Part shown: positions 15,449-32,000 of the stretch, one piece after another
Layout: each line of letters begins with the position of its first letter
How positions within the stretch are numbered: position 1 is the first letter of the stretch
NCBI RefSeq assembly: GCF_000189295.2
Contig: NC_016803.1
Coordinates: forward strand, 3,240,001-3,272,000
Origin: Pseudodesulfovibrio mercurii
Lineage (GTDB): Bacteria > Desulfobacterota > Desulfovibrionia > Desulfovibrionales > Desulfovibrionaceae
Reading direction: 5' to 3'
DNA: 32,000 nt
Translations under genes and position numbers: made by a program
Notes under the pieces: generated by a model
What the model saw: the letters and a program-made list of their open reading frames with translations, nothing else
Told to the model about the DNA's origin: nothing
Database searches by the model: none

Positions 15449-15498
15449 GGCTCCTCCGTGGGGCTTGGGCGATGTGTCGGTGATGGGCGCCGTGGCGG

Positions 15499-16890: not shown

Positions 16891-17087
16891 GGCGTGGTGG
16901 CCCTTTAAAAAATTGTTAACAAAAATAATTTCATAGAATGCATCAATAATCAATACCGCGTTGCTCGTCATAATGAGACGGACAGGTGAGGATTTTTTTC
17001 CGCAGGTGACCTTTTTCCCCACGGGTTGCGTAACGCGAGACAACCCGCTATCTCTACGGACGGGGAAAAACTGTCTGCAAATCAGGG
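16891..17087. promoter_or_regulatory. Divergent control region between the caspase-1 operon and the sigma operon
   Basis: An AT-rich stretch (16905-16960) stands out in a GC-rich genome. A direct repeat CAGGTGA-NN(N)-T5-7 occurs at 16983 and 17003, exactly 20 bp apart. An inverted repeat CGGGTTG-N12-CAACCCG lies at 17022-17047, 41 nt upstream of the sigma ATG. I could not assign any promoter hexamers with confidence. Confidence 0.3.
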
Positions 17088-17939: not shown

Positions 17940-17946
17940 GACAAAG

Positions 17947-18843
17947 ATGCAGAGGACGAATCGGCATATGGCGCACCATCTGAGCGACGAACAACTGGCC
18001 GAACTGGGTCTGGCCGCGACGGAAGGAACCGGGCATCCCGGCCCCTGCCCGTCCGCCGAGGATCTGGCCGCACTGCGGGAGGGCCGCCTGGACGCGGCCC
18101 GCCGGGCCGAAATCCTGGCCCATCTCGACGGTTGCGCCGAATGCGTGGCCCGGTGGCTGGCCGTGTCGTCGGTGGACGCATCCTCGGAGGACGCGCCGGA
18201 GCGGGCCGTCCCGGCCCCCAGGGCCGTGTCGCCGGTCTTTGTCCGGACCGTGGCCGTGATTGCGGCCGTTGCCGCCTGCGTGTTTTTCGTCATCCGTCTC
18301 TTTCCCCCGAGCGGGGGCGGGCCGGACTTCGCGCGCTCCGTGGACGCCGGGTACCGGCTCGTGCTGGACGATCCCCGGTTGTACGCCGCCCTGAGCGGCC
18401 CGGTCCGGGAGCTGGCCGCGTCCGGCGGGGTGCGGTCCGCCGGGACCCCGGCCGAAGGCGCGTTCGAGGCCGGGTGGGCGGCGGGCCTGGCCGCGCTGGG
18501 CCGGGGCAGGGAAGGGGTTGCCGCGCCTTCCGGCAACGCGCGCGCGGAGTACGTCTTTGCGGCGGGACGGTGGAGCGTCCTGGTTCATGCGGCGCTGGAC
18601 GCGGAGGTCCCGTCCGGCGGGAATTTCTGGAAGGAGCAGGCGCGGACCGCCGGGCTGTTCCAGGAGCGGACGGCCGCGCTCGCGCCTGGGGACGAGACCC
18701 GGCACCGGGCCCTGTGGGGGGACCTGGCGGCGGTCCTGGACCGTCTGGCCGACGGTTCCGCCACGGCGCGGGACCGGGACCGGCTGTGCAGGCTCCTGGG
18801 CGGGCTCGGTCGGGTCATGGGGGAATCGGACCTCGGCGCCTGA
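17947..18843 (+). CDS. Zinc-binding (ZAS-type) anti-sigma factor, single-pass membrane protein with periplasmic domain
   Basis: HLDGCAECV matches the H-x3-C-x2-C motif. It is followed by a TM segment (VFVRTVAVIAAVAACVFFVI) and an Ala/Gly-rich extracytoplasmic domain of about 190 aa. In-frame starts exist at 17932, 17947 (AGGA 5 nt upstream) and 17968, so the exact start is uncertain. Confidence 0.7.
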   Translation: MQRTNRHMAHHLSDEQLAELGLAATEGTGHPGPCPSAEDLAALREGRLDAARRAEILAHLDGCAECVARWLAVSSVDASSEDAPERAVPAPRAVSPVFVRTVAVIAAVAACVFFVIRLFPPSGGGPDFARSVDAGYRLVLDDPRLYAALSGPVRELAASGGVRSAGTPAEGAFEAGWAAGLAALGRGREGVAAPSGNARAEYVFAAGRWSVLVHAALDAEVPSGGNFWKEQARTAGLFQERTAALAPGDETRHRALWGDLAAVLDRLADGSATARDRDRLCRLLGGLGRVMGESDLGA

Positions 18844-18877
18844 CGAAAAAACCGGGCCGCGTCCGTCTGACAATGTC

Positions 18878-21013: not shown

Positions 21014-21645
21014 ACAGCGTGAAATGGTGTCTTGTCGTCGTATTGAGCCTGTTGTTCGCCGCGCCATGCGGCGCGGGCGAGCGCGTGAACCGCAGCGCCG
21101 AGGACGGGGCCAAGTCGCCCCGGGTGGTGATGATCGAGCAATACGCCCTGTCCGTGTCCATGGCCGACTACGGCGAGAGTTCCGGCAATCCGGTGGTCCT
21201 CCTGGCCGCTGCCCAGATTATGAAGGACGCCGGGCTCGGTGCCGAGGCGGACCGGGACGCGGCGCGCATCCTGGAGTCGGCCATGCGGCGCGCGGGCACG
21301 AACCTCAAGCTGCGCTCCCTGATCACCGCCGAGATGCGGCGGCAGGGCATGCGCGGCAATGTCCAGGGCCCGGCCAAGAACGTCAACCGGCTGGAGCCGA
21401 GCGGCGCGGCCGAGCACGACGTCCGCTTCATGGCCGGGGAACGGGCCGCGGTCTACGTCAAGAGCCGTGGCGGCCGCTTCAAGGTCTCGGTCTACGACGA
21501 AAACGGCGGCCTGGTGGCCGACCGGGACGGCGTGGACAGGGAGTGCATGGTCCAGTGGACGCCCGACTGGGACGGGCTGTTCACCATCAAGGTGGCCAAC
21601 CGGGAACAGGGGGCCGAACTGGCCTACCTCATGCTGACCAACTAG
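21010..21645 (+). CDS. Secreted hypothetical protein with a possible pre-peptidase-C-terminal-like beta-sandwich
   Basis: The ATG overlaps the caspase stop (ATGA at 21010-21013). Signal peptide: MNSVKWCLVVVLSLLFAAPCGAG. The C-terminal FMAGERAAVYVKSRGGRFKVSVYDENGGLVADRDG...WDGLFTIKVANRE resembles PPC-type domains. That resemblance is a low-confidence judgement by eye. Confidence 0.65.
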   Translation: MNSVKWCLVVVLSLLFAAPCGAGERVNRSAEDGAKSPRVVMIEQYALSVSMADYGESSGNPVVLLAAAQIMKDAGLGAEADRDAARILESAMRRAGTNLKLRSLITAEMRRQGMRGNVQGPAKNVNRLEPSGAAEHDVRFMAGERAAVYVKSRGGRFKVSVYDENGGLVADRDGVDRECMVQWTPDWDGLFTIKVANREQGAELAYLMLTN

Positions 21646-21662
21646 CGCCCACGGAGAGAGAC

Positions 21663-22187
21663 ATGTTTCGGAAATTCTGCATCGGGGTTTGTCTGGCATT
21701 CGCGGCGGTCGCCCTGGCCGGGGTCGCCCTGGCCGGGGAGGTGATCGACAGCGACACCCTGGTCCGGCAGCTGGAGGACGGCGGGAGCGGCGGCATGCGC
21801 ACGCGCGGCTTCACGGTCAACAAGGCCGCGGCCGAGACGCCCAGGCCCTCGGCGACCGTCTACATCTATTTCGCCACCAACAGCGCGGTCATCACCGGCG
21901 AGCAATCCTTCAGGCAGCTCGACGAGCTGGGCCGGGCCCTGACCTCAAGCGCCCTGCGCGGGGCGCGCATGGAGATCGGCGGCCATACGGACAGCGTGGG
22001 CAGCGATGCCTACAACCTGCAATTGTCCAGGAAGCGGGCCCAGGCCGTGAGCGACTATCTCAACAAGAAGTATGGGTTCACGGCTGCGGCCGTCACGGGC
22101 TACGGCGAGTCCGCCCCCGTGGCCTCCAACGAGACCGCCGAGGGGCGGGCCGGGAACCGCCGGGTGGTCATCACCCGCCTGGATTAG
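21663..22187 (+). CDS. OmpA/MotB-family peptidoglycan-binding protein (exported)
   Basis: Signal peptide MFRKFCIGVCLAFAAVALAGVALAGE. OmpA_C motifs: IYFATNSAVI, IGGHTDSVGSDAYNLQLSRKRAQAV, GYGESAPV, NRRVVI. Confidence 0.9.
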   Translation: MFRKFCIGVCLAFAAVALAGVALAGEVIDSDTLVRQLEDGGSGGMRTRGFTVNKAAAETPRPSATVYIYFATNSAVITGEQSFRQLDELGRALTSSALRGARMEIGGHTDSVGSDAYNLQLSRKRAQAVSDYLNKKYGFTAAAVTGYGESAPVASNETAEGRAGNRRVVITRLD

Positions 22188-22206
22188 GCTCGGGGAAGTC
22201 TGCGCC

Positions 22207-24279
22207 GTGAAATTCAAGTGGAAGCTCCTGCTGGTCCTGCTGGCCGTGGCCCTGGTGCCCCTGCTGGTCATGCGGGTGGTCATCCAGGACGCGGACGAGG
22301 AGTCCGCCCGTGTCCTGGCAGAGCGGTTCGGCCTGGGCGTGTCCGTGGGCCGGGACGCGGACGACGACCTGTCCATGCCCCTTGAGGACATCCTCGTGGC
22401 CCGGACCGAATCCGAACTGCTCTCCGTGGCCCGACGGTCCGCCCGGACGGCCGGGGACCGCTTCCGGCTGCTCGCCCAGGTGCAGCGGGAACAGCTGCGC
22501 CTGCTGGCCGGAGACGCGCCCCAGGATACGCCGCCCGAGCGGACCGGGGCCGGGAGCGGCTACTGGGCCTGGACCGGGGACGGCAAGCGGTCCCGGCTGG
22601 AGGTGGATCTCTCCTCGCTCACCACGCTCTCCCCGGAAGGCGGCGTCCCTGCGGCCCCGGACGGGTTTCTCGGGACGGCGCTCCCCGCCCTCGAATTCGG
22701 CAAGCGCTCCCTGCCCCGGCTGGTCCTGTGGCAGTGGGCCCGGTCCACGGATGGGACCGTCTGCCTGTATCCCGGACTGCCGGGCAACGGGGGCGCGCTC
22801 GTCCGGGAGTTCGCCGCCGTGGGCAGGGAGGCGGTCGGCACACCGGTTACGGTCCTGGCCAGCCCGGCCACGCACCAGCTGATGCTGCTCTCGACCCTGC
22901 GGGGCCGGACCCTGTCATCCCCCACGGTCACGGTGGCGGCCGCCATGGACGACCTGTTCGACAGCGCGGACGCGGTGGGGTTGCCCGCCGGCATCCAGTG
23001 GTTTTTCGTCCAGGCGGACGGGGAGGTGGTGCGCCTGCTCGCCTCGCGCACGCCCGGCGACGATCCCGGCTCCCTGTACTGGGCCTCGGGCGACCCCCTG
23101 CCCGACCTCGGGCCTGACCGGGGCGGCCCGCTCCGGGCCGGTCTCCGGGACGGCGGCCACGGGTCGTTTCGCCGGGGCGAAGGGGACGCCGACCATCTCT
23201 GGATCTTTGCCGGGCTGGGGGTGCGCGGCCTGGGCGTGGTCCTGCGCCTGTCCGTGTCCTCCCTGCTCGGGCAGTCCCTCCAGGCCGAGCGGTTCGTCGG
23301 CGAGACCATCCGGGTCCGGCACCGGACCATGATGCTGGTCATCGCGGGCCTGGGGCTGCTGACCCTGCTCGCGGCCCTGGCCCTGTCGAGCACCATGACC
23401 CGGCGCATGGAGCGGCTGGCCGAGGCGTTCAGGCAGGTGGCGGCGGGCGATTTTTCGGTCCGGGTGCGGGTGCGCGGCCGGGACGAGCTGGCCCAGCTGG
23501 GCGCGACCTTCGACGAGATGGTCCCGGCCCTGGACGAGCAGGTGCGCATGAAGCGGGACATGGCCGTGGCCCGTGGCATTCAGCAGTGCCTCATGCCCGA
23601 GGACGCGCCGTCCGCGCCGGGGCTGGACGTGGCCGGAATGTCCATCCCGCACGACGAGACCGGCGGGGATTACTATGATTTCTTCCGCTTCGACAACGGC
23701 GAGGTCGGGGCCGTGGTCGGGGACGTCACCGGACACGGCATCCCGGCGGCCCTGCTCATGGCCAGCTCGCGGGCCTTCCTCCGCGCCAACCTCGATGGGG
23801 GGGCGGATGCGGGACAGGTCCTGACCCGCGCCAACGAGCTGCTTTCGCGGGACATCCAGACCACGGGCCGGTCCATGACCGCGTTCCTGTGCGCCGTGGA
23901 CCCTGCCCGCCGGATGATCCGCTGGTCCCGCGCCGGACACGATCCGGCCATCGTCTACCTGCCCGGCAGCGGCGCCTTCGAGGAACTGGCCGGGGACAGC
24001 GGGCTGCCGCTGGGCGTCATGGACGGGATGGAATATGTGGAGGAGCGGCGGGAACTGCCCGAGGGCGCCGTGGTCTTCTTCGGCACGGACGGGGTCTGGG
24101 AGACCCATGGCCGGGACGGGGAGCTGTTCGGCAAGGACCGGGTCAGGGCGATCCTCCGGGAGAACGCGGACCGTTCCGCCGGGGCCATCGCCGACGTGAT
24201 CCTGTCCTCGGTCCGGGCCTTCGCCGGTGACGACGGGGTCGAGGACGACCTGACCCTGATCGTGCTCAGGCTGGTCTAG
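22207..24279 (+). CDS. Membrane sensor PP2C-type (SpoIIE/RsbU-like) serine phosphatase with periplasmic domain and HAMP
   Basis: GTG start at 22207 (VKFKWKLLLVLLAVALVPLLV is TM1). A periplasmic region of about 370 aa leads to TM2 (MMLVIAGLGLLTLLAALALS) and a HAMP domain (FRQVAAGDFSVRVRVRGRDELAQLGATFDEM). PP2C motifs: ARGIQQCLMP, GGDYYDF, VVGDVTGHGIPAALLMA, FGTDGVWE, DDLTLIVL. Confidence 0.9.
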   Translation: MKFKWKLLLVLLAVALVPLLVMRVVIQDADEESARVLAERFGLGVSVGRDADDDLSMPLEDILVARTESELLSVARRSARTAGDRFRLLAQVQREQLRLLAGDAPQDTPPERTGAGSGYWAWTGDGKRSRLEVDLSSLTTLSPEGGVPAAPDGFLGTALPALEFGKRSLPRLVLWQWARSTDGTVCLYPGLPGNGGALVREFAAVGREAVGTPVTVLASPATHQLMLLSTLRGRTLSSPTVTVAAAMDDLFDSADAVGLPAGIQWFFVQADGEVVRLLASRTPGDDPGSLYWASGDPLPDLGPDRGGPLRAGLRDGGHGSFRRGEGDADHLWIFAGLGVRGLGVVLRLSVSSLLGQSLQAERFVGETIRVRHRTMMLVIAGLGLLTLLAALALSSTMTRRMERLAEAFRQVAAGDFSVRVRVRGRDELAQLGATFDEMVPALDEQVRMKRDMAVARGIQQCLMPEDAPSAPGLDVAGMSIPHDETGGDYYDFFRFDNGEVGAVVGDVTGHGIPAALLMASSRAFLRANLDGGADAGQVLTRANELLSRDIQTTGRSMTAFLCAVDPARRMIRWSRAGHDPAIVYLPGSGAFEELAGDSGLPLGVMDGMEYVEERRELPEGAVVFFGTDGVWETHGRDGELFGKDRVRAILRENADRSAGAIADVILSSVRAFAGDDGVEDDLTLIVLRLV

Positions 24280-25941
24280 CTATTTGCCCATGTATTCGTC
24301 CAGCGCCTGGTTCACGCTCTCTTTGAGGAAGAACAGGTAGCGGGTCACCGGATAGTAGCTCCCCCGCGATTCCTTCAGCGTGAAGGTCTTCAACGTGTCC
24401 TTTTTCGCATCGTAGAAGTTGCACAGGACGTATATTTGATTCGAGGTGTTCAGGGTGCTCAGGTAGGTCGACACGGCCATCAGGGTGTCGGCGTGCAGCT
24501 GAACCGCCATCTGCCTGAGGATATTGGTGTCGGGGGGCCGGGAGGCCCCGCCGGACCACAGGATCGCCTCCGCGTTCGGGGACAGGGTATAGGGATGCGC
24601 CGGCGAATCCCCGTCTCCGGCGCAAAAGACGGAAAGGACGTCCTTTCTCTCGGCCAGGACGGAGAGCAGCTTTTCCCGTCCCTTCACCTCCCAGTCGCGC
24701 CGCTTGTATTTGTAGGTCCAGGCAAAGGCCATGGGCGCCACAGAAAGGACGAGCCTGCCGTTGGCGGCGCTCAGGGCTTTTTGCCTGGCGGACAGGGGAT
24801 CGACGTCGGTATGGACGATGTCCGATCCGCCTGAAACGATCCGGTTCTGCTGCAATGCGGCCACCTGTTGCCGCATGGCTTCCAACTGGGCCTTGAGCTC
24901 CTCGTCGGTCTGGCCGGATTGCGGGGCCGGGACGGGCTGCGGCCGGGTCTCGGCCTGTTCCTGCATGGCGGCCATCTGCTGCTGCACGGCCGCGAGCTGG
25001 GCCTTGAGCTCCTCGTTGGAATCGTCGGGCTGCCGCGTCTGGACCAGTTCGGCGTTCTGCCGGGCCTGCTCCTGGAGCGCCGCCATCTGCTGTTGCATGG
25101 CCAGGAGCTGCGCCTTGAGCGCCTCGGTCTCGGGGGTGACGGCCGGGGCGGGCGGGGGCGTCGGCGCGGCGACCGGTTCCGGTTTCTTCTCACGGAAATA
25201 GAACTTGCCGATCAGGGACGAGGATTCCCACGGCGTCTGGCGACCGCCGGTGTCCCGGATCACGCCGCGCCGGACCTGCATGAAGGTGTCGTAGATGTCC
25301 AGGCCGGGGGTGTTCATGGCCGCGAGCAGGTTCTTGGTGTAGACCCCGTTGCGTCCCTCCCCGTCGGCCGCCACCGAGCCCGGAGCCGTGGCGTAGGCCA
25401 TGATGGACCCGGTGGGCGCGTCCATGCGGGCCAGGCCGGTGGTCTCGGAGCGCATGGACCGGGCAAAGGGGTTGTTGCGGCAGGCGTCCAGGATGATGAT
25501 GTTCATCTGGTTGCCCGCCAGCTTCAGGTGATCCAGGATGCGGCCCGCCGAGACCGCCTCATAGGGCACGTCCGCCTCGGTCTCGATGTCCGCGTCCACC
25601 GGGATGAGGTAGTTCTCCCCGTTCACCTGGATGCCGTGCCCGGCGAAATAGAAGAGGCCCACGCCGCCGTCCGCCAGCTGCCTGGACAGCTTGCGCACGG
25701 CGTTCTCCATCTGGCGCCGGGTGCCGTCGGTCAGGAGCGTGACCCGGAAGCCGAGTCCCTCGAGTTCCCTGCCGACGTCCGTGGCGTCGTGGACGGGGTT
25801 GGCCAGGGGCATGCCGGGGTAGGCGGAATTGCCGATGACCAGGGCGGTTTTCTGGGGAGCGGCGGCCCTGGCGGGCGCGAGAAGGAGCAGGGTTGTCGCC
25901 AACAGCGAGACGACGATGGCGATGGGGGTTCTGGTGTGCAC
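24280..25941 (-). CDS. Exported caspase-like peptidase (C14) with Pro-rich linker, 3 x 37-aa coiled-coil repeat and unknown C-terminal domain (paralogue 3)
   Basis: GTG start at 25941 (GGAG 6 nt upstream), with signal peptide TPIAIVVSLLATTLLLLAPARA. Motifs: ALVIGNSAY, catalytic His in YFAGHGIQ, catalytic Cys in ILDACRNNPF. Then a KKPEPVAAPTPPPAPAVTPE linker, three EELKAQLxAxQQQxAAxQEQ repeats, and about 190 aa with no family I recognise. Confidence 0.9.
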   Translation of the reverse strand: MHTRTPIAIVVSLLATTLLLLAPARAAAPQKTALVIGNSAYPGMPLANPVHDATDVGRELEGLGFRVTLLTDGTRRQMENAVRKLSRQLADGGVGLFYFAGHGIQVNGENYLIPVDADIETEADVPYEAVSAGRILDHLKLAGNQMNIIILDACRNNPFARSMRSETTGLARMDAPTGSIMAYATAPGSVAADGEGRNGVYTKNLLAAMNTPGLDIYDTFMQVRRGVIRDTGGRQTPWESSSLIGKFYFREKKPEPVAAPTPPPAPAVTPETEALKAQLLAMQQQMAALQEQARQNAELVQTRQPDDSNEELKAQLAAVQQQMAAMQEQAETRPQPVPAPQSGQTDEELKAQLEAMRQQVAALQQNRIVSGGSDIVHTDVDPLSARQKALSAANGRLVLSVAPMAFAWTYKYKRRDWEVKGREKLLSVLAERKDVLSVFCAGDGDSPAHPYTLSPNAEAILWSGGASRPPDTNILRQMAVQLHADTLMAVSTYLSTLNTSNQIYVLCNFYDAKKDTLKTFTLKESRGSYYPVTRYLFFLKESVNQALDEYMGK

Positions 25942-25991
25942 GGTAAACTCCGGGGACAGGGTGAGACTCGGTGGCTCGGCGGCAGGCCGTG

Positions 25992-26020
25992 AACATATCA
26001 ACAAGCGCCAACTTGTTCAA
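25992..26020 (-). promoter_or_regulatory. Candidate sigma70-type promoter for caspase paralogue 3, overlapping a short palindrome
   Basis: The minus strand reads TTGAAC (26020-26015), a 17-nt spacer, then TATGTT (25997-25992). The spacer contains AACAAG-N8-CTTGTT. This would place the TSS about 45 nt upstream of the GTG at 25941 and downstream of the track's ATG at 26004. Confidence 0.3.
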
Positions 26021-26164
26021 TTCCTAGATAAGGGCCTCCTGATTCCGGCCTCCACAGATACGGGGACGGACACCTCCGGCCGATTTTTCTCCTGTTCGGC
26101 AAAATGGTTTTCCACCGTTCGCGCGGGGCGCGCCGGACGGCCGTCCGTGCGCAACGGACCGGGG

Positions 26165-26207
26165 CGGAAAACGGGCCGGGGCCCCGCACGTCCGCACGGG
26201 GCCCCGG
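26165..26207 (-). terminator. Terminator-like GC hairpin after the amphi-Trp/ParA/GAK operon
   Basis: A perfect 11-bp stem pairs CCGGGGCCCCG (26176-26186) with CGGGGCCCCGG (26197-26207) around a 10-nt loop. On the minus strand it is followed by CCCGUUUUCC. It starts 25 nt after the TAA at 26232-26234. Confidence 0.5.
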
Positions 26208-26231
26208 TTCCGGATGGGTGTCGCGGGCCGG

Positions 26232-26663
26232 TTATTCGCCCGATATCTTGAGGGATTCGGCCTGGGAGCCGTCGTCGAGCCATTCCAGCTCGATCTCGCA
26301 TTTGGCCTTGTCCTTTTTGCGGGCCAGCTTGAGCTCCACCTGCATGGTCTCGGGCACGCCGAGGACCAGGGTGCCGCCCTCGTTCTCGGCGCGGATGACG
26401 CCGGATTCGATGGAGTCGGCCAGGTCCTTGAGGTAGGCGACCACCTGGGCCGTGTCCATGGTCTGTTCGATCTTGATCTTGCCTTTGCCCATCGTGGTCT
26501 CCTCGTTGTCGGTCGCGGCCGGGCGGAACAGGCCGGTGCGCGGTCCGGCCGTGTCCGCCCGCGGGGCGGGTTGCGTGGTTTCGGGGGCCGGGCCGGAGGC
26601 CTCGGGGGTCGCGGCGGGCGTGACCCACTCAAGAGGGTTGGTCCCGAGTCTCTCGTCGCTCAT
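26232..26663 (-). CDS. Amphi-Trp domain protein with Pro/Thr/Ala-rich N-terminal extension
   Basis: KIKIEQTMDTAQVVAYLKDLADSIESGVIRAENEGGTLVLGVPETMQVELKLARKKDKAKCEIELEWLD matches my memory of the amphi-Trp domain: alternating-charge strands and a conserved Trp in an ElEW motif. The ATG at 26663 overlaps the ParA stop (ATGA), and the 57-codon extension has high GC3. An alternative internal ATG at 26492 has a strong GAGGAG RBS. Confidence 0.75.
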   Translation of the reverse strand: MSDERLGTNPLEWVTPAATPEASGPAPETTQPAPRADTAGPRTGLFRPAATDNEETTMGKGKIKIEQTMDTAQVVAYLKDLADSIESGVIRAENEGGTLVLGVPETMQVELKLARKKDKAKCEIELEWLDDGSQAESLKISGE

Positions 26664-27415
26664 GGGGCACCTCTGCGGAGCAGTTCCAGGGCCAGGTTCC
26701 GGTAGTCGGCGGCCCCGTGGCTGCGGGGTTTGTAGGTGAAGATGTCCCGGCCGAAACTGGGGGCCTCGGCCAGGGAGATGTTGTCGCGGATGGTCGTATC
26801 CAGCAGGGCGTCGCCGAAGTGGTCCTTGATCTTGCGCCGGATCTCCCGGTTGAGCTTGCGGGTGCGTTGGTAGCGGGTCATGAGGATGCCGGACAGGGTG
26901 AGATGCGGGTTCCAGCCCTCGCGGATGGCCTTGACCGTCTCCATGAGCTTGCCCAGGGATTGCAGGGCCAGGAATTCCGGCTGCACCGGCACGAGCAGTT
27001 CGTTCGCCGCGACCATGGCGTTCAGTGTGAGCATGCCGAGGTTGGGCGGGCAGTCGATGATGGCGAAGTCGTACCCTCCGGTCCCGGCCAGGGCGTCGCG
27101 CAGCCGGGTCTCGCGGTTCCCGGCCGAAGCCAGGTCCACCTCGGTCCCGGCCAGGGCCACGGAGGCGGGCACCACATGCAGTCCGCCGACCTCCATGGTC
27201 ACGCTGTCCAGGGGACACTCGCGCATCAGGGCCGCGCCCATGGTCCGGGGCAGCTCGTGGGCCATGATGCCCAGGGAATAGGTCAGATGCGCCTGGGGGT
27301 CGAGGTCCAGCAGCAGGACGCGCCGGTCCTGCCGGGCCAGGGCGGCCCCCAGGTTCACGGCGGTGGACGTCTTGCCCACGCCCCCCTTCTGGTTCAGTAC
27401 GGCGATGATGCGCAT
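26660..27415 (-). CDS. ParA/Soj/MinD-family P-loop ATPase (orphan, no ParB seen)
   Basis: Deviant Walker A in IIAVLNQKGGVGKTSTAVNLG, plus LLLDLDPQAHLT, Walker B DFAIIDCPP, and LVPVQPEFLALQSL. Confidence 0.95.
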   Translation of the reverse strand: MRIIAVLNQKGGVGKTSTAVNLGAALARQDRRVLLLDLDPQAHLTYSLGIMAHELPRTMGAALMRECPLDSVTMEVGGLHVVPASVALAGTEVDLASAGNRETRLRDALAGTGGYDFAIIDCPPNLGMLTLNAMVAANELLVPVQPEFLALQSLGKLMETVKAIREGWNPHLTLSGILMTRYQRTRKLNREIRRKIKDHFGDALLDTTIRDNISLAEAPSFGRDIFTYKPRSHGAADYRNLALELLRRGAP

Positions 27416-27427
27416 GCCGGTCCCGGT

Positions 27428-27613
27428 CTAGTGCGTGGTGTGCAGGGTGATCTTCTTGATGACGTACTCCCGGCCGTAGCGGCAGGTCAGGGAGTTGATC
27501 CGTTCGAGAATGCGGTCCCGCTCCTCGTCCACCATGTCGGGGTTCTCCTCTTCGATGCCGAACAGGTCGGCCACCTCATTCCATTCGAAACATTGATCTT
27601 GCGTTTCAGTCAT
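27428..27613 (-). CDS. Small acidic hypothetical protein (61 aa)
   Basis: MTETQDQCFEWNEVADLFGIEEENPDMVDEERDRILERINSLTCRYGREYVIKKITLHTTH. RBS GGAG lies 7 nt upstream of the ATG at 27613. The gene ends 12 nt before the ParA start. I recognise no family, and it is too short for certainty. Confidence 0.5.
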   Translation of the reverse strand: MTETQDQCFEWNEVADLFGIEEENPDMVDEERDRILERINSLTCRYGREYVIKKITLHTTH

Positions 27614-27645
27614 TGTTTTTCTCCGCAATGGGCTCGTGCTCGTTG

Positions 27646-28191
27646 TTATTTCTTGTCGGCGGACTTGGCCGACGTTTTCTTGGCGATGGATTTCTTGGAT
27701 GCCGCCTTTTTTGCCGCTTTTTTCCCGTCCGGGTCCTTTTTGGCCGCCGCCTTTTTCGCTTCGAATTTGGCCTCGGATTTGGCCTCGGATTCGGGCCTGG
27801 CTTCGGTGGTGGCCGGGACCCTGGCCGGTTCGGTGGTGGCCGGGGCCATTGCCGGAATCTTGGCGGCCGGGGCCTGGGCCGCGGGCTTCATGGCCGGGGC
27901 GCCGCCCTCGGGCTGGATCGCCGGTGCGGGCGCGGGCTCGGCGTCGCCGATCCGGAGTTCGTCCCCTCCGGCCTCGGTCCAGCTCAGCTCGAAGCCGATC
28001 TTCTGCTTGTCGTTCTTGACTTTGGCCTCCACCTTGACGGCCACCTGGGCGCCGGGCGTCATGACCACGTGCTCCCCGCCGCTCTCCACCACGATGGTGC
28101 CGGACCGGAAGCTCCTGGCCAGGTCTTCGATGTAGGACACGGCGTCCTTGTACTCCAGGACCTTCTTGACACTGATCTTTTGCTTATCCAC
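27646..28191 (-). CDS. Amphi-Trp domain protein with Pro/Ala-rich linker and Lys/Ala-rich (histone H1-like) C-terminal tail
   Basis: GTG start at 28191 (GGAGG 8 nt upstream). The domain KISVKKVLEYKDAVSYIEDLARSFRSGTIVVESGGEHVVMTPGAQVAVKVEAKVKNDKQKIGFELSWTE parallels the other amphi-Trp protein. The tail reads ESEAKSEAKFEAKKAAAKKDPDGKKAAKKAASKKSIAKKTSAKSADKK. Confidence 0.75.
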   Translation of the reverse strand: MDKQKISVKKVLEYKDAVSYIEDLARSFRSGTIVVESGGEHVVMTPGAQVAVKVEAKVKNDKQKIGFELSWTEAGGDELRIGDAEPAPAPAIQPEGGAPAMKPAAQAPAAKIPAMAPATTEPARVPATTEARPESEAKSEAKFEAKKAAAKKDPDGKKAAKKAASKKSIAKKTSAKSADKK

Positions 28192-28217
28192 GTTCACAAC
28201 CTCCTTTGGGTTGGCCG

Positions 28218-29426
28218 TCAGCAAAGCGACAGCAAAAATTCGCTCAGGACCCGGCCGTCGAGGTGCGGCGCGCTCCGCGCCGTGACCAGGGGGCCGTCTA
28301 TGACCGTGAAGCCGCGCTCCTCGATCCGCTTTCTGTCGATGCCCCCGGCGTACCGCCCGTTTTTCGAGTCCACCAGGACGTAGCCCAGGACCTCGCCGTC
28401 TCCGGTACCGCCGCCGTCCCCGTCGTGGGCCTCGACGTCGGCCCGCAGGTGGCGGCAGAGGATGTCCGCCCGCTCGGCCACGGACACGCCGGGCGTCTCG
28501 GGGTCCGCGCCCGTGGACGGGACGAAGACCTTGGGGCAGGTGTTGGCGGCCACGGCCCGGCCCACGCCGTCGACCAGCAGGTTGGCCACCACGCTGGAAT
28601 AGAAGCTGCCCGGCGGGTAGCAGATCAGGTCCGCCTTGCCGATCCACTCCCGGACCTTCTTGCGGATGGCCGTGCGGACCGGTTCCCGGTCGTCCGGGGA
28701 GCGGGTCAGCCAGATGTCCTCGATGGGCGAGGCGAGCGGGGCGGACTCCTTGCCGGTAATCCGGTGCTGTCCCACGATGGTCTCGCCGTCGGCCAGGCGC
28801 ACGGCCAGGTGCAGGTCCTGGTTCACGGTCGGGCGGACCACGCCGCAGACCTGGACCAGCTTGGAGAAGAGGTAGATGACCGGGTCCAGTTGGCGGCGGT
28901 TAGACAGGTACCCGGCGGTCAGGACCAGGTTGCCGATGGACGCGCCCCGGAGGTCGAAGTCCTCGGGCATGCGTTCCAGGAATTCGTAGAAATGGTTGCG
29001 GATGAGCTTGCGCATGGGGTCCGGGATGCGCCGGACCAGGGGGTGCGCCCCGGCGGCCATGGCGTCCAGGTCGGCGCGCAGGGCGTCGCGCTCCCCGTCC
29101 TTGGGCAGCCGGTGGGTGAACAGGTTGTATATCTCGGGGTTGCCCTGCACGGACTGGTCGGCCAGGGCCATGAGCCGGTTGCGGATGTCGCCCACGGCGG
29201 GCATGCCGAAGGCCTTGCGGATGACCGCCGAGCTGCCCCCCGAGTCGAAGGGGGTGATCAGGTGGATGGAGTTGTGGGTGTAGCGGATGAGCTCCCTGGA
29301 GGTGTCGCGCAGGGCCGAGCCGCCGCTGAAGAAGAGCACGGACGGGCCGAGTTCGGGGGCCCGCCGGAACTGCTCCAGCTTTCGCGGGTCCGGGATGGTG
29401 ACGTCCCTGGTGACTCGAATGCGCAC
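28218..29426 (-). CDS. CofD/YvcK-family protein (CofD-related protein of the GAK system)
   Basis: GTG start at 29426 (GGAG 6 nt upstream), 11 nt after the kinase stop. The N-terminal VLFFSGGSALRDTSRELI and ITPFDSGGSSAVIR resemble the CofD/UPF0052 nucleotide-binding region, and LICYPPGSFYSSVVANLL resembles its C-terminal motif. The upstream 276 codons of the track ORF are a shadow. Confidence 0.85.
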   Translation of the reverse strand: MRIRVTRDVTIPDPRKLEQFRRAPELGPSVLFFSGGSALRDTSRELIRYTHNSIHLITPFDSGGSSAVIRKAFGMPAVGDIRNRLMALADQSVQGNPEIYNLFTHRLPKDGERDALRADLDAMAAGAHPLVRRIPDPMRKLIRNHFYEFLERMPEDFDLRGASIGNLVLTAGYLSNRRQLDPVIYLFSKLVQVCGVVRPTVNQDLHLAVRLADGETIVGQHRITGKESAPLASPIEDIWLTRSPDDREPVRTAIRKKVREWIGKADLICYPPGSFYSSVVANLLVDGVGRAVAANTCPKVFVPSTGADPETPGVSVAERADILCRHLRADVEAHDGDGGGTGDGEVLGYVLVDSKNGRYAGGIDRKRIEERGFTVIDGPLVTARSAPHLDGRVLSEFLLSLC

Positions 29427-29437
29427 TGTCCGCTCCG

Positions 29438-30535
29438 TCAGTCGGCCGGGAGGAGGCCGGTTTGCATGTACCGCAAGCATATCTCGGAAGCGCGGTCGAA
29501 GTCCACGCCTCCGGCGATTTCGATGAGATCGGTCTTGGACAGGAGCGCGGCGTAGGCGTCCTCGTCCGGGTCCGCCCGCCGGGCCGGGTCGTCGGGCAGG
29601 TAGAACAGCCCCGTGGACTTCATGAACGCGGGCAGCAGGTCGCGGCGCTCCCGTGGGTCCACCAGACCGGCGCGCAGGGGGGCGCGGTCCCGGCTCCAGT
29701 TGAGGACGACCAGTGCGTTCATGGGGCAGCGCAGCTCGAATTTGCCCGGTCCGTAGCACTCGTCGATGAGGGCGTCGTACTTGTGCTCCAGCTGCCACAG
29801 CTCGTCCTTGGGCAGGGACAGGAACTTCTCGCGCATGCCCGGCTCCACGATGCAGTGCAGGTCCGGGTTGTGCAGGGCCGTGCCGGGGTTGATGCGCGGC
29901 TGCTTGGCCACCCCGTACATGACCAGGCCGTCGCCGTCCTCCTCGACCATGACCCGGTCGTTGGAGATGAAGGTCGTGCCCCTGCTCATGAGGTGCAGGG
30001 CCAGGGTGGACTTGCCCGCGCCCGAGAATCCGGCCAGGGAGATGCCGCGTTCGCCCGAACGCACCCCGGCGGCGTGGCCCAGGAACCCGCCCCTGTTGAG
30101 CTTCCACTCGATGAACCGGTTGTTGACGAAATTGATGACCTGGTTGGGGTTGTCCAGGCACGGCCCCACGGCCACGTTCTCGCCCCGGCCGAAGAGGAAG
30201 TGCATGCCGGTCAGCCGCTTGCGGACCACGCGGCCGTCGGGCAGGTCGATCCACTCCTCCTTGATCCTGGTCTTGCCGGGATCGGGCTCCTTGACGTTGA
30301 AGGCGAGGTCCGTGTCCACGGCCGGGACCTCGTGGGCCGAGAGGGTGATCTCCGGCTCGCCGTCCCCGGTCAGGAACTCCTTGAAATAGTCGGCCAGGAC
30401 GTCGTGCAGGGCGTCCGTGGAGCTGTCCACCCGGATGCGGCAGCCGCCGAGGTCCAGGTGGAGGGTGTGCCCGGCCGGGCAGGCCGTCTTCACGGCCTCG
30501 GCCAGTTCCCTGCGGGTGGTGCCGGTCAGCTTCAT
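29438..30535 (-). CDS. HprK-related P-loop kinase (HprK-related kinase B type)
   Basis: The ATG at 30535 overlaps the ATP-grasp stop (ATGA). The P-loop GISLAGFSGAGKSTLALHLM followed by FISNDRVMV resembles the C-terminal kinase domain of HPr kinase/phosphorylase. Confidence 0.8.
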   Translation of the reverse strand: MKLTGTTRRELAEAVKTACPAGHTLHLDLGGCRIRVDSSTDALHDVLADYFKEFLTGDGEPEITLSAHEVPAVDTDLAFNVKEPDPGKTRIKEEWIDLPDGRVVRKRLTGMHFLFGRGENVAVGPCLDNPNQVINFVNNRFIEWKLNRGGFLGHAAGVRSGERGISLAGFSGAGKSTLALHLMSRGTTFISNDRVMVEEDGDGLVMYGVAKQPRINPGTALHNPDLHCIVEPGMREKFLSLPKDELWQLEHKYDALIDECYGPGKFELRCPMNALVVLNWSRDRAPLRAGLVDPRERRDLLPAFMKSTGLFYLPDDPARRADPDEDAYAALLSKTDLIEIAGGVDFDRASEICLRYMQTGLLPAD

Positions 30536-31404
30536 TTGAGTTTCTCCATGACGTAGTCCACGTAGCGCGCGGCGGCGTCGATGCCGCTGGTCTCCTGGAT
30601 GCCCCGGAAGCCCCCGAACACGGAGACCTCGAAGACGTAGGGGCCGTCGTCGGTGATGGCCACGTCCACGCAGGTGAAGTCGAGGTTGAAGTCGGCCTGG
30701 GCCTTGCGGGCCAGCTCGATGATCTCGGGCGCGGGCTCGTAGGGCCGGTATTTGCCGCCCGAGGCCGTGGTCGTGTTCCAGGCCCCGTTGGTCTTGCACC
30801 GGGCGTAGGTGGTCAGGTACTCGCCGCCCAGGAAGGCGATGCCCAGGTCCAGATCGCCCAGCTCGATGGTCTTCTGGATGTACAGGATCGGGTTCTCGGC
30901 CTTGTACTCCTCGATGGCCGCCCGGGCGTCCGGGCCGTTCCTCAGCACGAACATGCCGCGCGCCTTGGAGGTGTACAGCGGCTTGAACACGGCCTCGCCG
31001 TATTGCTCCAGCGCCGTCAGGGCCTGGTCCACGGACTCCGTGACGGTCGTGGGCGGCATGGGGATGTCCTTGAGTTGCAGCGAGATGGTGCAGGACAGCC
31101 GGTCCAGGGCGCGCAGGATGGCGTAGGGCGCGCTGAATATCCTGAGCCCCCGCTCGTGCAGGTAGCGCAGGACCTCCAGCCGGTCCAGGAGGTCCGGGGA
31201 ATAGCGCGCGCCGATCTTCTTGATGATCAGGGCGTCGAAATCGTTCAGGGTGTGCCCGTCGTAGAAGGCCCGGCCCGAGGGTAGGTCCAGGCGCACGTCC
31301 TCCATGTCGATGAGCACGCGCTCCCCGCCGGTCTTCTCGGCCACGGTGTCCGCCAGTTTTTCGGAGGACCAGCCGCCCTCGATGCCAATGACTCCTATCT
31401 TCAC
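30532..31404 (-). CDS. RimK-like ATP-grasp ligase (ATP-grasp enzyme of the GAK system)
   Basis: GTG start at 31404 (AAGGAG 7 nt upstream). The 290-aa protein has the ATP-grasp layout: MKIGVIG pre-ATP-grasp region, VFKPLYTSKARGM, ILYIQKTIE, and DFTCVDVAITDDGPYVFEVS (Mg/ATP-binding C-terminal motif). Confidence 0.9.
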   Translation of the reverse strand: MKIGVIGIEGGWSSEKLADTVAEKTGGERVLIDMEDVRLDLPSGRAFYDGHTLNDFDALIIKKIGARYSPDLLDRLEVLRYLHERGLRIFSAPYAILRALDRLSCTISLQLKDIPMPPTTVTESVDQALTALEQYGEAVFKPLYTSKARGMFVLRNGPDARAAIEEYKAENPILYIQKTIELGDLDLGIAFLGGEYLTTYARCKTNGAWNTTTASGGKYRPYEPAPEIIELARKAQADFNLDFTCVDVAITDDGPYVFEVSVFGGFRGIQETSGIDAAARYVDYVMEKLK

Positions 31405-31423
31405 GAAACGGCTCCTTGCTTGC

Positions 31424-32000
31424 CTAGTAGTAGAGGACGTCCTCGGGCAGGGAGAAAAGCTCCCAGTCCCCGCCCCGGTATTGATGAATCTTTTCCAGCA
31501 GGAACATGGACCGGTTGTACATCTCCTTGGCGAACTTGAAGTTCAGCTCGAACCGGGTGGAGGTGTAGAAGCTGCGCGCCAGGGCGAAGGCCAGCCGGGC
31601 CTGGACCGTGGGGTCCTCGTGCCGCTGGGCGAACTCCAGGATGAACCCGTAGAACTGCCGGATGACCGAGTTGATGCGTTTGCGGTGGTCCGAATCGAAC
31701 AGGGGCACGCGGAAGTTGGAGACCAGGAAGACCGAGGCGTCCTGGACGTAGTCGAAGTCCCGCGAGCGGTACAGGTCGATGTAGTGGATCTGCTGGGCCT
31801 CGTGGTTGTAGACCACGTTGTTGATGTTGAAGTCGCCGTGGATGAAGACCGAGAAGGGGGCTTCCAGCTCGTCCTCGATGTCCGCGCAGGCCGACAGCAG
31901 GGCCTCGGTGGACCGGACCTCCGACGGCCCCAGGCTCTTGGGGTCGCGCCAGAACTCGGGGTGGGTCTGGAGCACGCCTTCCAGGCGGGACTGGATCTGC
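31424..32000 (-). CDS. Aminoglycoside-phosphotransferase/choline-kinase-like (APH fold) kinase, C-terminal part (5' end beyond window)
   Basis: Brenner-type catalytic motif FIHGDFNINNVV, followed by IHYIDLYRS (metal-binding Asp). The frame stays open to nt 32000, so the listed GTG at 31975 is internal. The stop lies 19 nt upstream of the ATP-grasp start. Confidence 0.75.
   Translation of the reverse strand, partial: QIQSRLEGVLQTHPEFWRDPKSLGPSEVRSTEALLSACADIEDELEAPFSVFIHGDFNINNVVYNHEAQQIHYIDLYRSRDFDYVQDASVFLVSNFRVPLFDSDHRKRINSVIRQFYGFILEFAQRHEDPTVQARLAFALARSFYTSTRFELNFKFAKEMYNRSMFLLEKIHQYRGGDWELFSLPEDVLYY

Follow-up and report, generated by a model that had tools for sequence, protein, structure and literature searches.

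What does the cluster of ligase, kinase and amphi-Trp genes on the minus strand of the sulfate reducer Pseudodesulfovibrio mercurii comprise, and what could its products do together? In the window (the whole stretch of DNA analysed, 32,000 nt), positions 26176 to 32000 hold the last eight of the 11 genes of a GAK-system operon, together with its terminator (Table 1), and the part inside the window is the downstream two-thirds of this conserved, biochemically uncharacterised operon. The original prediction had taken it as complete and had regarded an APH-like kinase as a local addition. Comparison with 80 related genomes shows that the operon extends further than was then supposed, and supports fairly well a tie to the phosphate-starvation response.

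Table 1. Features of the GAK locus inside the window.
Feature	Position	Strand	Remarks
PhoU-domain/APH-EcKL-fold kinase fusion, 3′ end	31424..32000	-	191 codons and stop, cut by window edge
GAK-system ATP-grasp ligase, 290 aa	30532..31404	-	GTG start; RimK/LysX/MptN superfamily
HprK-related kinase B (HprK_B), P-loop phosphotransferase, 365 aa	29438..30535	-	ATG overlaps ATP-grasp stop
GAK-system CofD-like protein, 402 aa	28218..29426	-	GTG start 11 nt past HprK_B stop
Amphi-Trp protein 1, 181 aa	27646..28191	-	TIGR04354 65 bits (cut-off 31)
61-aa acidic protein	27428..27613	-	no family
ParA/MinD-family ATPase, 251 aa	26660..27415	-	deviant Walker A motif KGGVGKT
Amphi-Trp protein 2, 143 aa	26232..26663	-	TIGR04354 62 bits (cut-off 31); ATG overlaps ParA stop
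GC-rich hairpin, probable intrinsic terminator	26176..26207	-	25 nt past last stop codon

Extent and gene order of the operon

The ORF check returned eight co-directional minus-strand ORFs within the window. ATGA overlaps join the ATP-grasp and HprK_B genes (30532-30535) and the ParA and amphi-Trp-2 genes (26660-26663), and the remaining gaps are 19, 11, 26, 32 and 12 nt, all as originally described. The start of amphi-Trp-1 is probably the GTG at 28191, with AGGAGG 8 nt upstream; use of the alternative GTG at 28197 would shorten the 26-nt gap to 20 nt. The CofD-like gene has an alternative ATG start at 29480. The hairpin proposed to close the operon was confirmed: 14 perfect, GC-rich base pairs enclose a loop of 4 nt, CCCGUUUUCC comes next, and the 72-nt context has a folding energy of -39.5 kcal/mol (z = -1.6). 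A consensus terminator scan made no call at this hairpin because its U-run is short. As the same gene order recurred in 80 loci of other species in the comparison with related genomes, the eight genes were regarded as a real operon rather than a chance arrangement.

Whereas gene layout, hairpin and family calls of the earlier observation stood, its completeness did not: the first gene is cut at 32000, and beyond the window edge, further upstream, come at least three other conserved genes. Across Desulfobacterota and SAR324 the core order is XXXCH, U388, amphi0, PhoU/APH-fold kinase, ATP-grasp, HprK_B and CofD/YvcK-like, often followed by a tailed amphi-Trp gene. XXXCH was found upstream of the kinase in 56/62 loci; U388, an unclassified 388-aa protein with invariant His, Asp and Glu residues, in 67/67; and amphi0, an 88-aa protein encoded by the most conserved amphi-Trp gene, in 66/70, so that a small non-enzymatic protein is encoded beside the enzymes in nearly every locus. 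P. mercurii contigs L081 and L082 carry all three genes, with XXXCH scoring 116 bits against TIGR04358 (cut-off 40) and amphi0 identical to DND132_2929. U388 generated no match in Pfam, NCBIfam, a PDB profile search or hhalign comparison, and its residue pattern makes it a putative hydrolase. Spacing and synteny suggest that all 11 genes are co-transcribed.

Enzymes, amphi-Trp proteins and clade-specific genes

The four in-window GAK families exceeded the curated NCBIfam cut-offs by a wide margin in the NCBIfam/Pfam profile search, as predicted, and with XXXCH they make up the GAK system (TIGR04354-TIGR04358); the names and accession range originally given (TIGR04354-04357) were correct. That no function is assigned to it also held, since a literature search returned no paper on the GAK system, the HprK-related kinase or the TIGR accessions and a single incidental mention of amphi-Trp. 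The ATP-grasp protein, encoded in 78/78 loci, scored 451 bits against TIGR04356 (cut-off 300). Among non-GAK models, MptN was best (149 bits), with rimK_fam at 104 bits (cut-off 143) and LysX at 81 bits (cut-off 276); RimK (5zct, E 1.4e-15) and LysX are its closest relatives of known structure, yet both families score below their model cut-offs. HprK_B, 100% identical to P. mercurii protein P0001, scored 549 bits against TIGR04355 (cut-off 200) and only 28 bits against the HprK-related kinase A model. It carries invariant H154, GFSGxGKST (169-177) and SNDR (191-194). In Foldseek its AF2 model (pLDDT 93) aligned best with the ATP-PEP carboxykinase 1j3b (E 1.6e-8, about 400 columns), and with HprK/P 1kkl through the C-terminal domain only (E 8.5e-7). 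The CofD-like protein (70/73 loci) scored 547 bits against TIGR04357 (cut-off 340) and 140 bits against Pfam CofD. Among solved structures it aligned best with YvcK-type UPF0052 proteins (2ppv, E 1.3e-22), but reached only 125 bits on the YvcK model TIGR01826 (cut-off 196); no solved CofD or FbiA structure was found at E<0.001.

The kinase fragment in the window is the last 191 codons of a gene of ~550 codons and includes the kinase catalytic loop (HGDFNINN) as well as a motif for metal binding (IDL). It scored 26.3 bits against Pfam EcKL (cut-off 22) and 22.0 bits against APH, below the cut-off of 23.2. In a full-length orthologue of 550 aa (L002:7461-9113), two PhoU domains at residues 7-206 precede the kinase; they scored 80 bits against TIGR02135 and 63.5 bits against Pfam PhoU, and a profile matched the solved PhoU 4q25 (E 6e-18). 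The two repeats retain the conserved E/D-xxx-D motifs of PhoU, but the region is not a canonical PhoU, as it scores 80-84 bits against an equivalog cut-off of 130 and is fused to a kinase. All full-length kinases examined show the fusion, and for P. mercurii the N-terminal PhoU part is encoded on the species' own contigs L081/L082. As the gene (~546-550 aa) was found in 77/77 related loci, the claim that this locus adds an APH-like kinase was rejected; judged by gene content, the PhoU-APH-fold kinase is a universal core component of GAK loci. The catalytic residues of both this kinase and HprK_B are invariant.

Amphi-Trp-1 consists of an N-terminal amphi-Trp domain, a Pro/Ala-rich linker and a Lys/Ala-rich, histone-H1-like tail. 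Its counterparts at the post-CofD position, present in 43/69 loci, have highly variable tails, often K/A/P-rich and sometimes acidic; this count is at odds with an amphi-Trp duplication peculiar to this locus. Amphi-Trp-2 is arranged the other way round: the conserved peptide MSDERLGTNPLEWV is N-terminal, and a variable, disordered linker leads to the amphi-Trp domain at the C-terminus, which ends in LKISGE. The AF2 model of this domain (pLDDT 76.8) has the order b1-a1-b2-b3-b4-b5-(b6), with no solved-structure relative in Foldseek (best E 0.17). A post-Trp h-K-I-S strand is common to all three amphi-Trp classes, across which only the Trp and two Lys residues are conserved; there is therefore no universal Ser/Thr/Glu acceptor. 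The C-terminal residue of amphi0 in 118 cluster representatives was Ser in 73, Thr in 17 and Arg in 14, and the P. mercurii protein, ending in FLKVR, lacks the C-terminal Ser. [quoted passage not shown]

Judged by the loci compared, only ParA, amphi-Trp-2 and the 61-aa protein are accessories specific to the Pseudodesulfovibrio clade, in line with their original description as local extras. ParA (Pfam AAA_31, 169 bits; ParA_partition, 118 bits, under the cut-off of 180) was found in 7/62 loci, all of this clade and always followed by an amphi-Trp-2 gene, itself confined to the clade (6/60 loci). No ParB gene is adjacent. The amphi-Trp-2 N-terminal peptide is kept in seven loci as S-x-D/E-K/R-R-L-G-x-N-P-L-x-W-V. 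The ATGA coupling, the strict co-occurrence and this conserved peptide lend support to the earlier idea of ParA as a spatial organiser of an amphi-Trp protein. The 61-aa protein had no Pfam or NCBIfam match; its gene is present in 7/65 loci, all in the Pseudodesulfovibrio clade (40-89% identity) and some without ParA, and among 1.84 billion proteins it had 14 representatives, each of 58-72 aa.

A probable link to phosphate starvation

The strongest functional lead, absent from the original prediction, is phosphate. As in the Pho regulon, GAK loci show Pho-box-like direct repeats and adjacency to pst-phoU: in 25/62 loci the 350 nt before the first gene contain 10-11 bp direct repeats, against a chance expectation of at most 0.009 per upstream window, and pst(S)CAB-phoU is found no more than 10 kb away in about 13 loci, about 10 of which have it immediately upstream and in the same direction. 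The half-sites are of three clade-specific types (TGTGAM/TGTTAC, TGTCAC and TTAACA/CTAACA), and repeats of this kind also stand just upstream of pstS (278 bits), phoU, PPK2 (314 bits) and a gene for an OlsF-like ornithine-lipid synthase. The Pseudodesulfovibrio version occurs seven times in 2.67 Mb, every time at the first-gene position and once in P. mercurii; its period is 10 bp rather than the 11 bp of the others, in a sample without a pst locus of that clade. A gene for MgtE directly follows the operon in 12 loci. Together, the PhoU fusion, the repeats and the gene neighbourhood support fairly well that the operon belongs to the Pho regulon, and the motifs suggest regulation by PhoB. Transcription would start from a promoter that precedes the XXXCH gene, beyond the window edge, and carries tandem 10-11 bp PhoB/PhoP-type direct repeats, and the PhoU domains would couple the kinase to phosphate status.

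Candidate mechanism and alternative explanations

The reading that joins these features, to which we give an even chance, is a Pho-linked 11-gene GAK operon whose enzymes modify amphi-Trp proteins and whose ParA positions them. The enzymes would act on their own amphi-Trp proteins near the C-terminal strand. A Ser/Thr would be phosphorylated by either kinase or by both, after which the CofD-like protein would build a phosphodiester on the phosphate. The ATP-grasp ligase would attach an amino acid (probably Glu) to a carboxylate, and one of the steps would be undone by U388. Such covalent modification is proposed only tentatively, by analogy. Lasso precursors offer a parallel: HPr-kinase homologues place a phosphate on their C-terminal Ser, and this phosphate is then decorated by a second transferase (PMC8498205). 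Like the paeninodin and pseudomycoidin clusters, the latter of which also has a nucleotidyltransferase, the GAK locus places an HprK-fold P-loop kinase beside a small candidate substrate, and amphi0 ends in Ser/Thr in 90/118 representatives; unlike them, it has no lasso cyclase, protease or PqqD genes, and its candidate substrate is a folded domain protein of 88-180 aa rather than a leader-core peptide. RimK and LysX act on protein C-termini: in RimK/S6 and LysX-ArgX/LysW, amino acids are ligated to the C-terminal end of a small protein that is encoded, or acts, close by, and in LysW pathways a kinase also acts on the carrier-bound intermediate. Unlike these substrates, amphi-Trp C-termini are not conserved acidic residues.

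In P. mercurii, ParA may bind the N-terminal peptide of amphi-Trp-2 while the Lys-rich tail of amphi-Trp-1 binds a polyanion (DNA or polyphosphate), an arrangement that would tether and space the amphi-Trp assembly along the nucleoid. This step, too, is suggested only tentatively, from likeness to known systems. ParA proteins position cargo through adaptors such as the ParB N-terminal peptide or, for carboxysomes, McdA/McdB, and histone-H1-like tails tether PhaF, PhaM and AlgP to the nucleoid. Here an orphan ParA is translationally coupled to a partner with a basic/hydrophobic N-terminal peptide, a linker and a putative cargo-binding domain, and the sister protein amphi-Trp-1 has a Lys/Ala/Pro-rich tail; in contrast to those systems, this locus, known from its genes, has no ParB, parS or known cargo.

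In several of the enzymes the likeness to small-molecule enzymes is at least as great as that to enzymes that modify proteins, and YvcK-type proteins may be metabolite sensors; both points argue against a protein substrate. It is possible, though rather unlikely, that the enzymes build or remodel a phosphorylated, phosphodiester-linked, glutamylated metabolite analogous to F420 or methanopterin side chains, or make a phosphate-sparing or -storage compound under phosphate stress, and that the amphi-Trp proteins, instead of being substrates, serve for carriage, chaperoning or binding. Phosphodiester formation by the CofD family is known from F420 synthesis, and CofD/FbiA with CofF/MptN pairs a CofD-fold protein with a RimK-family ligase, as the GAK locus does. 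MptN, the closest non-GAK ATP-grasp model, is a cofactor alpha-Glu ligase; PEP carboxykinase gives the best alignment to the HprK_B model as a whole; APH/EcKL kinases, whose fold the second kinase shares, act mostly on small molecules; the amphi-Trp classes share no acceptor residue; and the other Pho-box-preceded genes, PPK2 and OlsF-like, are metabolic. However, neither a CofC-like nucleotidyltransferase nor a scaffold-forming enzyme is conserved in the cluster, which, unlike F420/methanopterin tail synthesis, has no CofC/CofE or deazaflavin genes; the operon encodes no nucleotidyltransferase to activate a donor for the CofD-like step. The CofD-like protein is also nearer YvcK than CofD/FbiA, and a conserved 88-aa non-enzyme with a conserved C-terminal Ser/Thr would be unusual in a purely metabolic operon.

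That likeness to YvcK fits a complex that senses or regulates without covalent chemistry on the amphi-Trp proteins, which would then be adaptors. The CofD/YvcK-like protein would sense a nucleotide sugar or metabolite, in the manner of B. subtilis GlmR/YvcK, while signals of phosphate or energy status would come from the PhoU-kinase and HprK_B; as its output the complex would control phosphate/Mg uptake or envelope synthesis. PhoU domains are regulatory, the flanking MgtE and pst-phoU genes suit such an output, and B. subtilis yvcK adjoins crh, which encodes an HPr-like substrate of HprK/P. We nevertheless consider this improbable, as real chemistry is favoured by the intact ATP-grasp ligase (78/78), by the putative hydrolase (67/67) and by the catalytic residues of the two kinases, which are invariant. 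The original version, a complete eight-gene operon with a four-family GAK core and a local kinase, ParA, acidic protein and amphi-Trp duplicate, is very improbable: its genes, overlaps and terminator are real, its names, lack of assigned function and clade-restricted extras were confirmed and its ParA idea gained support, but the window-edge cut, the three conserved genes and promoter repeats upstream and the kinase count rule out completeness and an added kinase, and the post-CofD gene speaks against a local duplication.

No function is attached to the GAK name. As named by NCBIfam/TIGRFAMs, the system omits the PhoU-APH-fold kinase and U388, universal partners beyond the named set, to which the Pseudodesulfovibrio clade adds ParA, its coupled amphi-Trp protein and the 61-aa protein; phosphate is a new functional lead for the system.

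Composition and extent of the GAK operon

The locus is a genuine instance of the GAK system named in NCBIfam. The four families named for it in the original prediction all scored above the NCBIfam curated cut-offs in a search with NCBIfam and Pfam models. The ATP-grasp enzyme gave a full-length match to TIGR04356 (451.3 bits vs. a cut-off of 300), HprK-related kinase B (HprK_B) matched TIGR04355 (548.8 bits vs. 200), the CofD-like protein matched TIGR04357 (546.6 bits vs. 340), and the two amphi-Trp proteins of the window matched TIGR04354 (65.0 and 62.1 bits vs. 31), as did a third amphi-Trp protein on an upstream contig of P. mercurii (66 bits). Pfam assignments were concordant (RimK, CofD, Amphi-Trp and AAA_31), with weak EcKL/APH matches on the truncated kinase. 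As the corresponding curated cut-offs were missed, none of the proteins is HprK/P, CofD, RimK or partition ParA in the equivalog sense. A search of the literature for the GAK system, the HprK-related kinase or its family accessions found no publication.

Because the G+C content of the window is about 67%, ORF lists were full of antisense artefacts, and genes were delimited on the minus strand by start codon and Shine-Dalgarno context (see table). Both ATGA overlaps, and gaps of 19, 11, 26, 32 and 12 nt, agree with the earlier reading of this strand. Folding also recovered the GC hairpin proposed at 26176-26207, a perfect 14-bp GC-rich stem 3′ of the last stop codon followed by CCCGUUUUCC; the consensus terminator scan, which missed the hairpin because of its short U-run, called no terminator on the minus strand where the operon ends. 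The consensus promoter scan found no sigma-70 promoter in 25900-32000.

For comparison, 80 loci of other species (Desulfovibrionales, Desulfobacterales, Desulfurivibrionaceae and SAR324) were fetched with HprK_B as the anchor, the window proteins were mapped onto them, neighbouring ORFs were clustered, and amphi-Trp domains were located by iterated HMM; gene counts take in only loci whose contig extends to the expected position. The GAK genes are co-directional and clustered in the same order in these 80 loci, and GAK is a conserved, co-directional module of enzymes and small proteins. It is represented in more than 1,500 protein clusters and, among sulfate reducers and their relatives, in about 300 genomes at species level. 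Some loci depart from this order at the CofD-like gene: one locus (L078:11160-11915) has two tandem amphi-Trp genes directly 3′ of HprK_B and no CofD-like gene, and in another (L028) the CofD-like gene lies about 8 kb away on the opposite strand.

Two short P. mercurii assemblies, L081 and L082, carry genes for an XXXCH protein, an unclassified protein of about 388 aa (U388), an 88-aa amphi-Trp protein (amphi0) and the PhoU N-terminus of the kinase. The XXXCH protein of L081 scored 115.8 bits on TIGR04358 (cut-off 40), and no XXXCH gene is present inside the window; amphi0, which is DND132_2929 (P0235), was recovered by an amphi-Trp profile search. From the identical gene order in the related loci L001 and L002, we infer that these contigs, which share no overlapping sequence with the window, join it at its edge. 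The orthologues in L001 and L002 are mostly 80-93% identical to the window proteins (62-77% for the two amphi-Trp proteins). The window thus holds the 3′ eight of eleven operon genes, and the description of the operon as complete does not stand: the kinase gene runs off the window edge and further conserved genes lie upstream. Among the genes taken as local additions to the core, those for the 61-aa protein, ParA and the second amphi-Trp protein are indeed clade-specific, but the APH-like kinase is a universal component (77/77 loci). The real core also holds the kinase, which is a PhoU fusion, U388 (a probable hydrolase) and the 88-aa amphi-Trp protein. The window instance is a clade-specific variant (ParA, adaptor and 61-aa protein) of a known, functionally uncharacterised system.

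Products of the GAK operon and of the adjacent block in the window, with occurrence among the loci compared
Product	Position	Strand	Occurrence
XXXCH protein			56/62
U388			67/67
Amphi0 (88-aa amphi-Trp protein)			66/70
Kinase (fragment, 191 codons, open to window edge)	31424-32000	-	77/77
ATP-grasp enzyme, 290 aa, GTG start	31404-30532	-	78/78
HprK-related kinase B, 365 aa	30535-29438	-	
CofD-like protein, 402 aa, GTG start	29426-28218	-	70/73
Amphi-Trp protein 1, 181 aa	28191-27646 (alternative start 28197)	-	43/69 (amphi-Trp gene 3′ of CofD-like gene)
61-aa acidic protein	27613-27428	-	7/65
ParA, 251 aa	27415-26660	-	7/62
Amphi-Trp protein 2, 143 aa	26663-26232	-	6/60
Caspase-domain (Peptidase_C14) protein	24280-26004	-	
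HAMP-SpoIIE phosphatase	22072-24279	+	
Caspase-domain (Peptidase_C14) protein	18518-21013	+	
Caspase-domain (Peptidase_C14) protein with DUF4384	15499-17043	-	

Beyond the GAK terminator, a stretch of about 13 kb (12838-26004) separates the operon from a type III glutamine synthetase gene (10523-12706, plus strand), and encodes an OmpA-like protein and an MscS channel in addition to the products in the table. In L002 the GAK operon is followed after about 540 nt by a 727-aa ORF, likened to the type III glutamine synthetase by size and orientation alone; for this reason the caspase-rich block looks like an insertion in P. mercurii.

Enzymes and small proteins of the module

The full-length kinase (about 546 aa) consists of two PhoU repeats (residues 7-206) fused to an APH/EcKL-fold domain, and a 26-sequence kinase profile matched solved PhoU structures at E 6e-18. 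The fusion was present in every full-length kinase examined. Pfam scores for the kinase domain were marginally over the cut-off for EcKL and just under it for APH, and the HxDxxxxN loop, metal-binding Asp and ATP-binding Lys of APH/EcKL-fold kinases are all present: the catalytic loop H413-G-D415-x-N417-x-N419-N420, D434 (metal) and K267 (ATP) are invariant or nearly so in 26 orthologues.

The HprK_B of the window is 100% identical to a P. mercurii protein, which assigns the window to this organism. HprK_B shares with HprK/P the P-loop GxSGxGKS, an upstream His and a catalytic Asp, and its H154, G169-T177 and D193 do not vary among 115 sequences. However, it scored 25 bits on the HprK/P model TIGR00679 (cut-off 240), with sequence likeness confined to the P-loop through the DDR-like Asp segment, and no HPr gene is present in the GAK cluster. 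In a Foldseek search with the AlphaFold model (pLDDT 93), the whole protein came closest to ATP-dependent PEP carboxykinases (E 1.6e-8, TM about 0.48, about 400 aligned columns), and HprK/P was near the C-terminal domain only (E 8.5e-7, TM about 0.6 on the target). Based on this ranking and the restricted similarity to HprK/P, HprK_B is predicted to be a PEPCK/HprK-fold phosphotransferase. PF27840, which may be a new model of the N-terminal domain, appears in the precomputed annotations of many HprK_B homologues.

The CofD-like protein has the CofD domain (PF01933, 140 bits vs. a cut-off of 30) but did not match the CofD equivalog; its nearest models and structures are of the YvcK type, and no F420 genes were found in the 80 neighbourhoods. 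The nearest solved relatives of the ATP-grasp enzyme are RimK and LysX, and its best non-GAK model is MptN; it exceeded the Pfam RimK cut-off (51.6 vs. 21 bits) but not that of rimK_fam (104.2 vs. 143.4 bits).

U388 (L002:6012-7172, orthologue L081:881-2041) had no match in Pfam, NCBIfam or a PDB profile search at E ≤ 10. Its residue pattern had suggested a PHP-type phosphoesterase, which these searches did not support, and comparison with E. coli YcdX gave an hhalign probability of 0.1%. As it contains invariant His/Asp/Glu clusters (HWHPE, H97, E110-x-D112, H127, P-H-P-E at 273-276, D287-x-D289 and D328-D-x-H331), U388 probably belongs to an unmodelled family of metal-dependent hydrolases. 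In the XXXCH protein, the N-terminal half (a helix and a K-I-K-I/x-V-K hairpin) looks like an amphi-Trp domain that lacks the Trp, and the C-terminus of the protein carries a conserved C-H-x-(K/R/Q)-Y-(K/D) (L002:5463-5987 and its ORF cluster).

The amphi-Trp domain was modelled (pLDDT 77) as b1-a1-b2-b3-b4-b5 with a short b6. A fold assignment was dropped, since the best Foldseek match against the PDB had E 0.17 and TM 0.53 and the matches were generic alpha+beta ones (MinE, dodecin, Bet v1-like). Conservation across the amphi-Trp classes is limited to the Trp and two Lys in the basic hairpin, and about 10 residues past the Trp all three classes have a strand of the form hydrophobic-K-I-S. 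At the b1/a1 junction, amphi0 carries F-x-x-E/D-S-h-Q-D almost without variation, and its last residue is Ser (73) or Thr (17) among 118 representatives; that of P. mercurii ends in FLKVR. For amphi-Trp protein 1, whose single-sequence search gave 3 matches, a 48-sequence profile was used instead; its tails are variable, often Pro/Ala-rich and then Lys-rich. Amphi-Trp protein 2 has a conserved N-terminal peptide, S-x-D/E-K/R-R-L-G-x-N-P-L-x-W-V, and then a variable linker; a LysW/S6-like acidic C-terminus, considered from its SGE ending, was rejected because the C-termini have no conserved Glu/Asp.

The window ParA has the KGGVGKT deviant Walker A motif and the ParA/MinD fold (AAA_31, 168.7 bits), but scored 117.7 bits against the ParA/Soj equivalog cut-off of 180, and its partner downstream is an amphi-Trp protein in place of ParB. 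The 61-aa protein matched no NCBIfam or Pfam model and forms a tiny family, with 14 representatives among 1.84 billion proteins. The best reading of the ParA/amphi-Trp protein 2 pair is a positioning ATPase and its adaptor, and that of the Lys-rich tail of amphi-Trp protein 1 a polyanion tether; both readings would make sense if amphi-Trp proteins build a mesoscale assembly. By abundance, an amphi-Trp protein, not necessarily of a GAK cluster, ranks within the top 20 proteins of Dissulfuribacter thermophilus (PMC13490349).

Phosphate-related context of the GAK operon

Three independent observations, the PhoU fusion, pst/phoU neighbours and promoter repeats, point the same way. The pstCAB-phoU genes lie within 10 kb in about 13 loci, and are directly upstream and co-directional in about 10; sometimes an LMW-phosphatase/ArsC-like gene alone intervenes, and in 8 loci this gene separates phoU from the GAK genes. 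A protein of about 834 aa, with a GT4 glycosyltransferase C-terminal half and a His-rich N-terminal domain without a Pfam match, is encoded near the cluster in 12 loci (loci with this or the LMW-phosphatase/ArsC-like gene include L037, L040, L050, L051, L053, L058, L061, L064-L066 and L068). A magnesium transporter gene (MgtE) is directly 3′ of the CofD-like gene and co-directional in 12 loci, about +2.3 to +2.6 kb from the anchor (e.g., L027, L037, L041, L043, L049, L052, L055, L056, L070, L074 and L077), and loci with this downstream MgtE have no tailed amphi-Trp gene.

Upstream of the first GAK gene stand direct repeats in tandem, with a period of 10-11 bp and half-sites specific to each clade. 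The Pseudodesulfovibrio repeat, TGTGAAcaatTGTGACaatt (TGTGAA-N4-TGTGAC, 10-bp period), occurred 7 times in the 2.67 Mb searched, always at this position and once in L081 of P. mercurii, and none was found inside the window. Sites matching TGTKAM-N4-TGTKAC (L081:239-258, L001:5368, L002:5372, L003:5366, L006:362, L008:5366 and L015:5348) precede a conserved CATTGA by about 15 nt, and are probably the operator/promoter of the GAK operon in the Pseudodesulfovibrio clade, outside the window. Among the matches listed in a metagenome scan for TGTNACNAATTGTNACNAT, a repeat of this type, were unrelated contigs and no Pho-gene context. Desulfomicrobium and others have the repeat TGTCACgcaaaTGTCACgcaaaTGTCAC, with the E. 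coli Pho-box half-site, and Desulfobacterales and Desulfurivibrio have TTAACA-N5-CTAACA-N5-CTAACA, of the B. subtilis PhoP type. A strict repeat match was found within 350 nt upstream in 25 of the 62 loci (chance expectation, at most 0.009 per window), and eight of the loci without one have pst-phoU directly upstream instead.

Outside the P. mercurii clade, the GAK operon shares TGTCAC or TTAACA/CTAACA repeats (11-bp period) with pstS, phoU, ppk2 and olsF-like genes. Elsewhere in the same loci, the repeats stand just upstream of genes for PstS (TIGR02136, 278 bits), PhoU (180 bits), PPK2 polyphosphate kinase (314 bits) and an OlsF-like ornithine-lipid synthase (412 bits, under the cut-off of 620). 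Such repeat-preceded genes (in L059:972-2112, L071:12682-14665, L037:668-1637 and L049:4205-5121) could seed a reconstruction of the Desulfobacterota Pho regulon. In phosphate-limited Desulfovibrio, phospholipids are replaced by ornithine lipids (PMC5193443); a D. alaskensis phosphate-limitation study contained no GAK genes. Taking together the PhoU fusion, the pst context and the repeats common to Pho genes, the GAK operon is probably a Pho-regulon member, which in the P. mercurii clade would hold by analogy with the other clades. Control of GAK by phosphate status is an inference with moderate support.

Proposed function and significance

The amphi-Trp proteins may be substrates of the GAK enzymes, a tentative reading suggested by the presence, beside the enzymes almost everywhere, of a gene for a strongly conserved small non-enzyme whose C-terminal Ser/Thr is conserved too. 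RimK and LysX act on protein C-termini. Lasso-peptide precursors are phosphorylated on the C-terminal Ser by HPr-kinase homologues, and a second transferase then decorates the phosphate (PMC8498205). Both precedents favour this reading; the main counter-arguments are that P. mercurii amphi0 has no C-terminal Ser, that no acceptor residue is conserved in all classes, and that several enzymes have a look of small-molecule enzymes (PEPCK-like fold, MptN-like ligase and APH-fold kinase). For these reasons, a small-molecule pathway is given nearly as much weight as protein modification.

If the protein-modification reading is extended, GAK would be a phosphate-starvation-induced maker and controller of a new cytoplasmic assembly of abundant amphi-Trp proteins, perhaps with polyphosphate or Mg-phosphate; as a whole, this proposal is improbable. 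The state of the assembly would depend on a C-terminal phospho, phosphodiester or aminoacyl modification without precedent, which both kinases together with the CofD-like transferase and the ATP-grasp ligase would put on and U388 would take off. In Pseudodesulfovibrio, the dedicated ParA would space the assembly along the nucleoid via the amphi-Trp adaptor and a histone-like tether.

The existing annotation covers neither the larger core nor the fusion of PhoU to the kinase, nor the context of Pho boxes and pst genes; together, these make GAK function directly testable. P. mercurii ND132 is a genetically tractable host and a model organism for mercury methylation. If amphi-Trp proteins bear a new C-terminal modification or form a ParA-positioned body, this would be new biochemistry or cell biology; if neither, GAK would still add a member to the Pho regulon, one that matters for phosphorus cycling in anoxic sediments.
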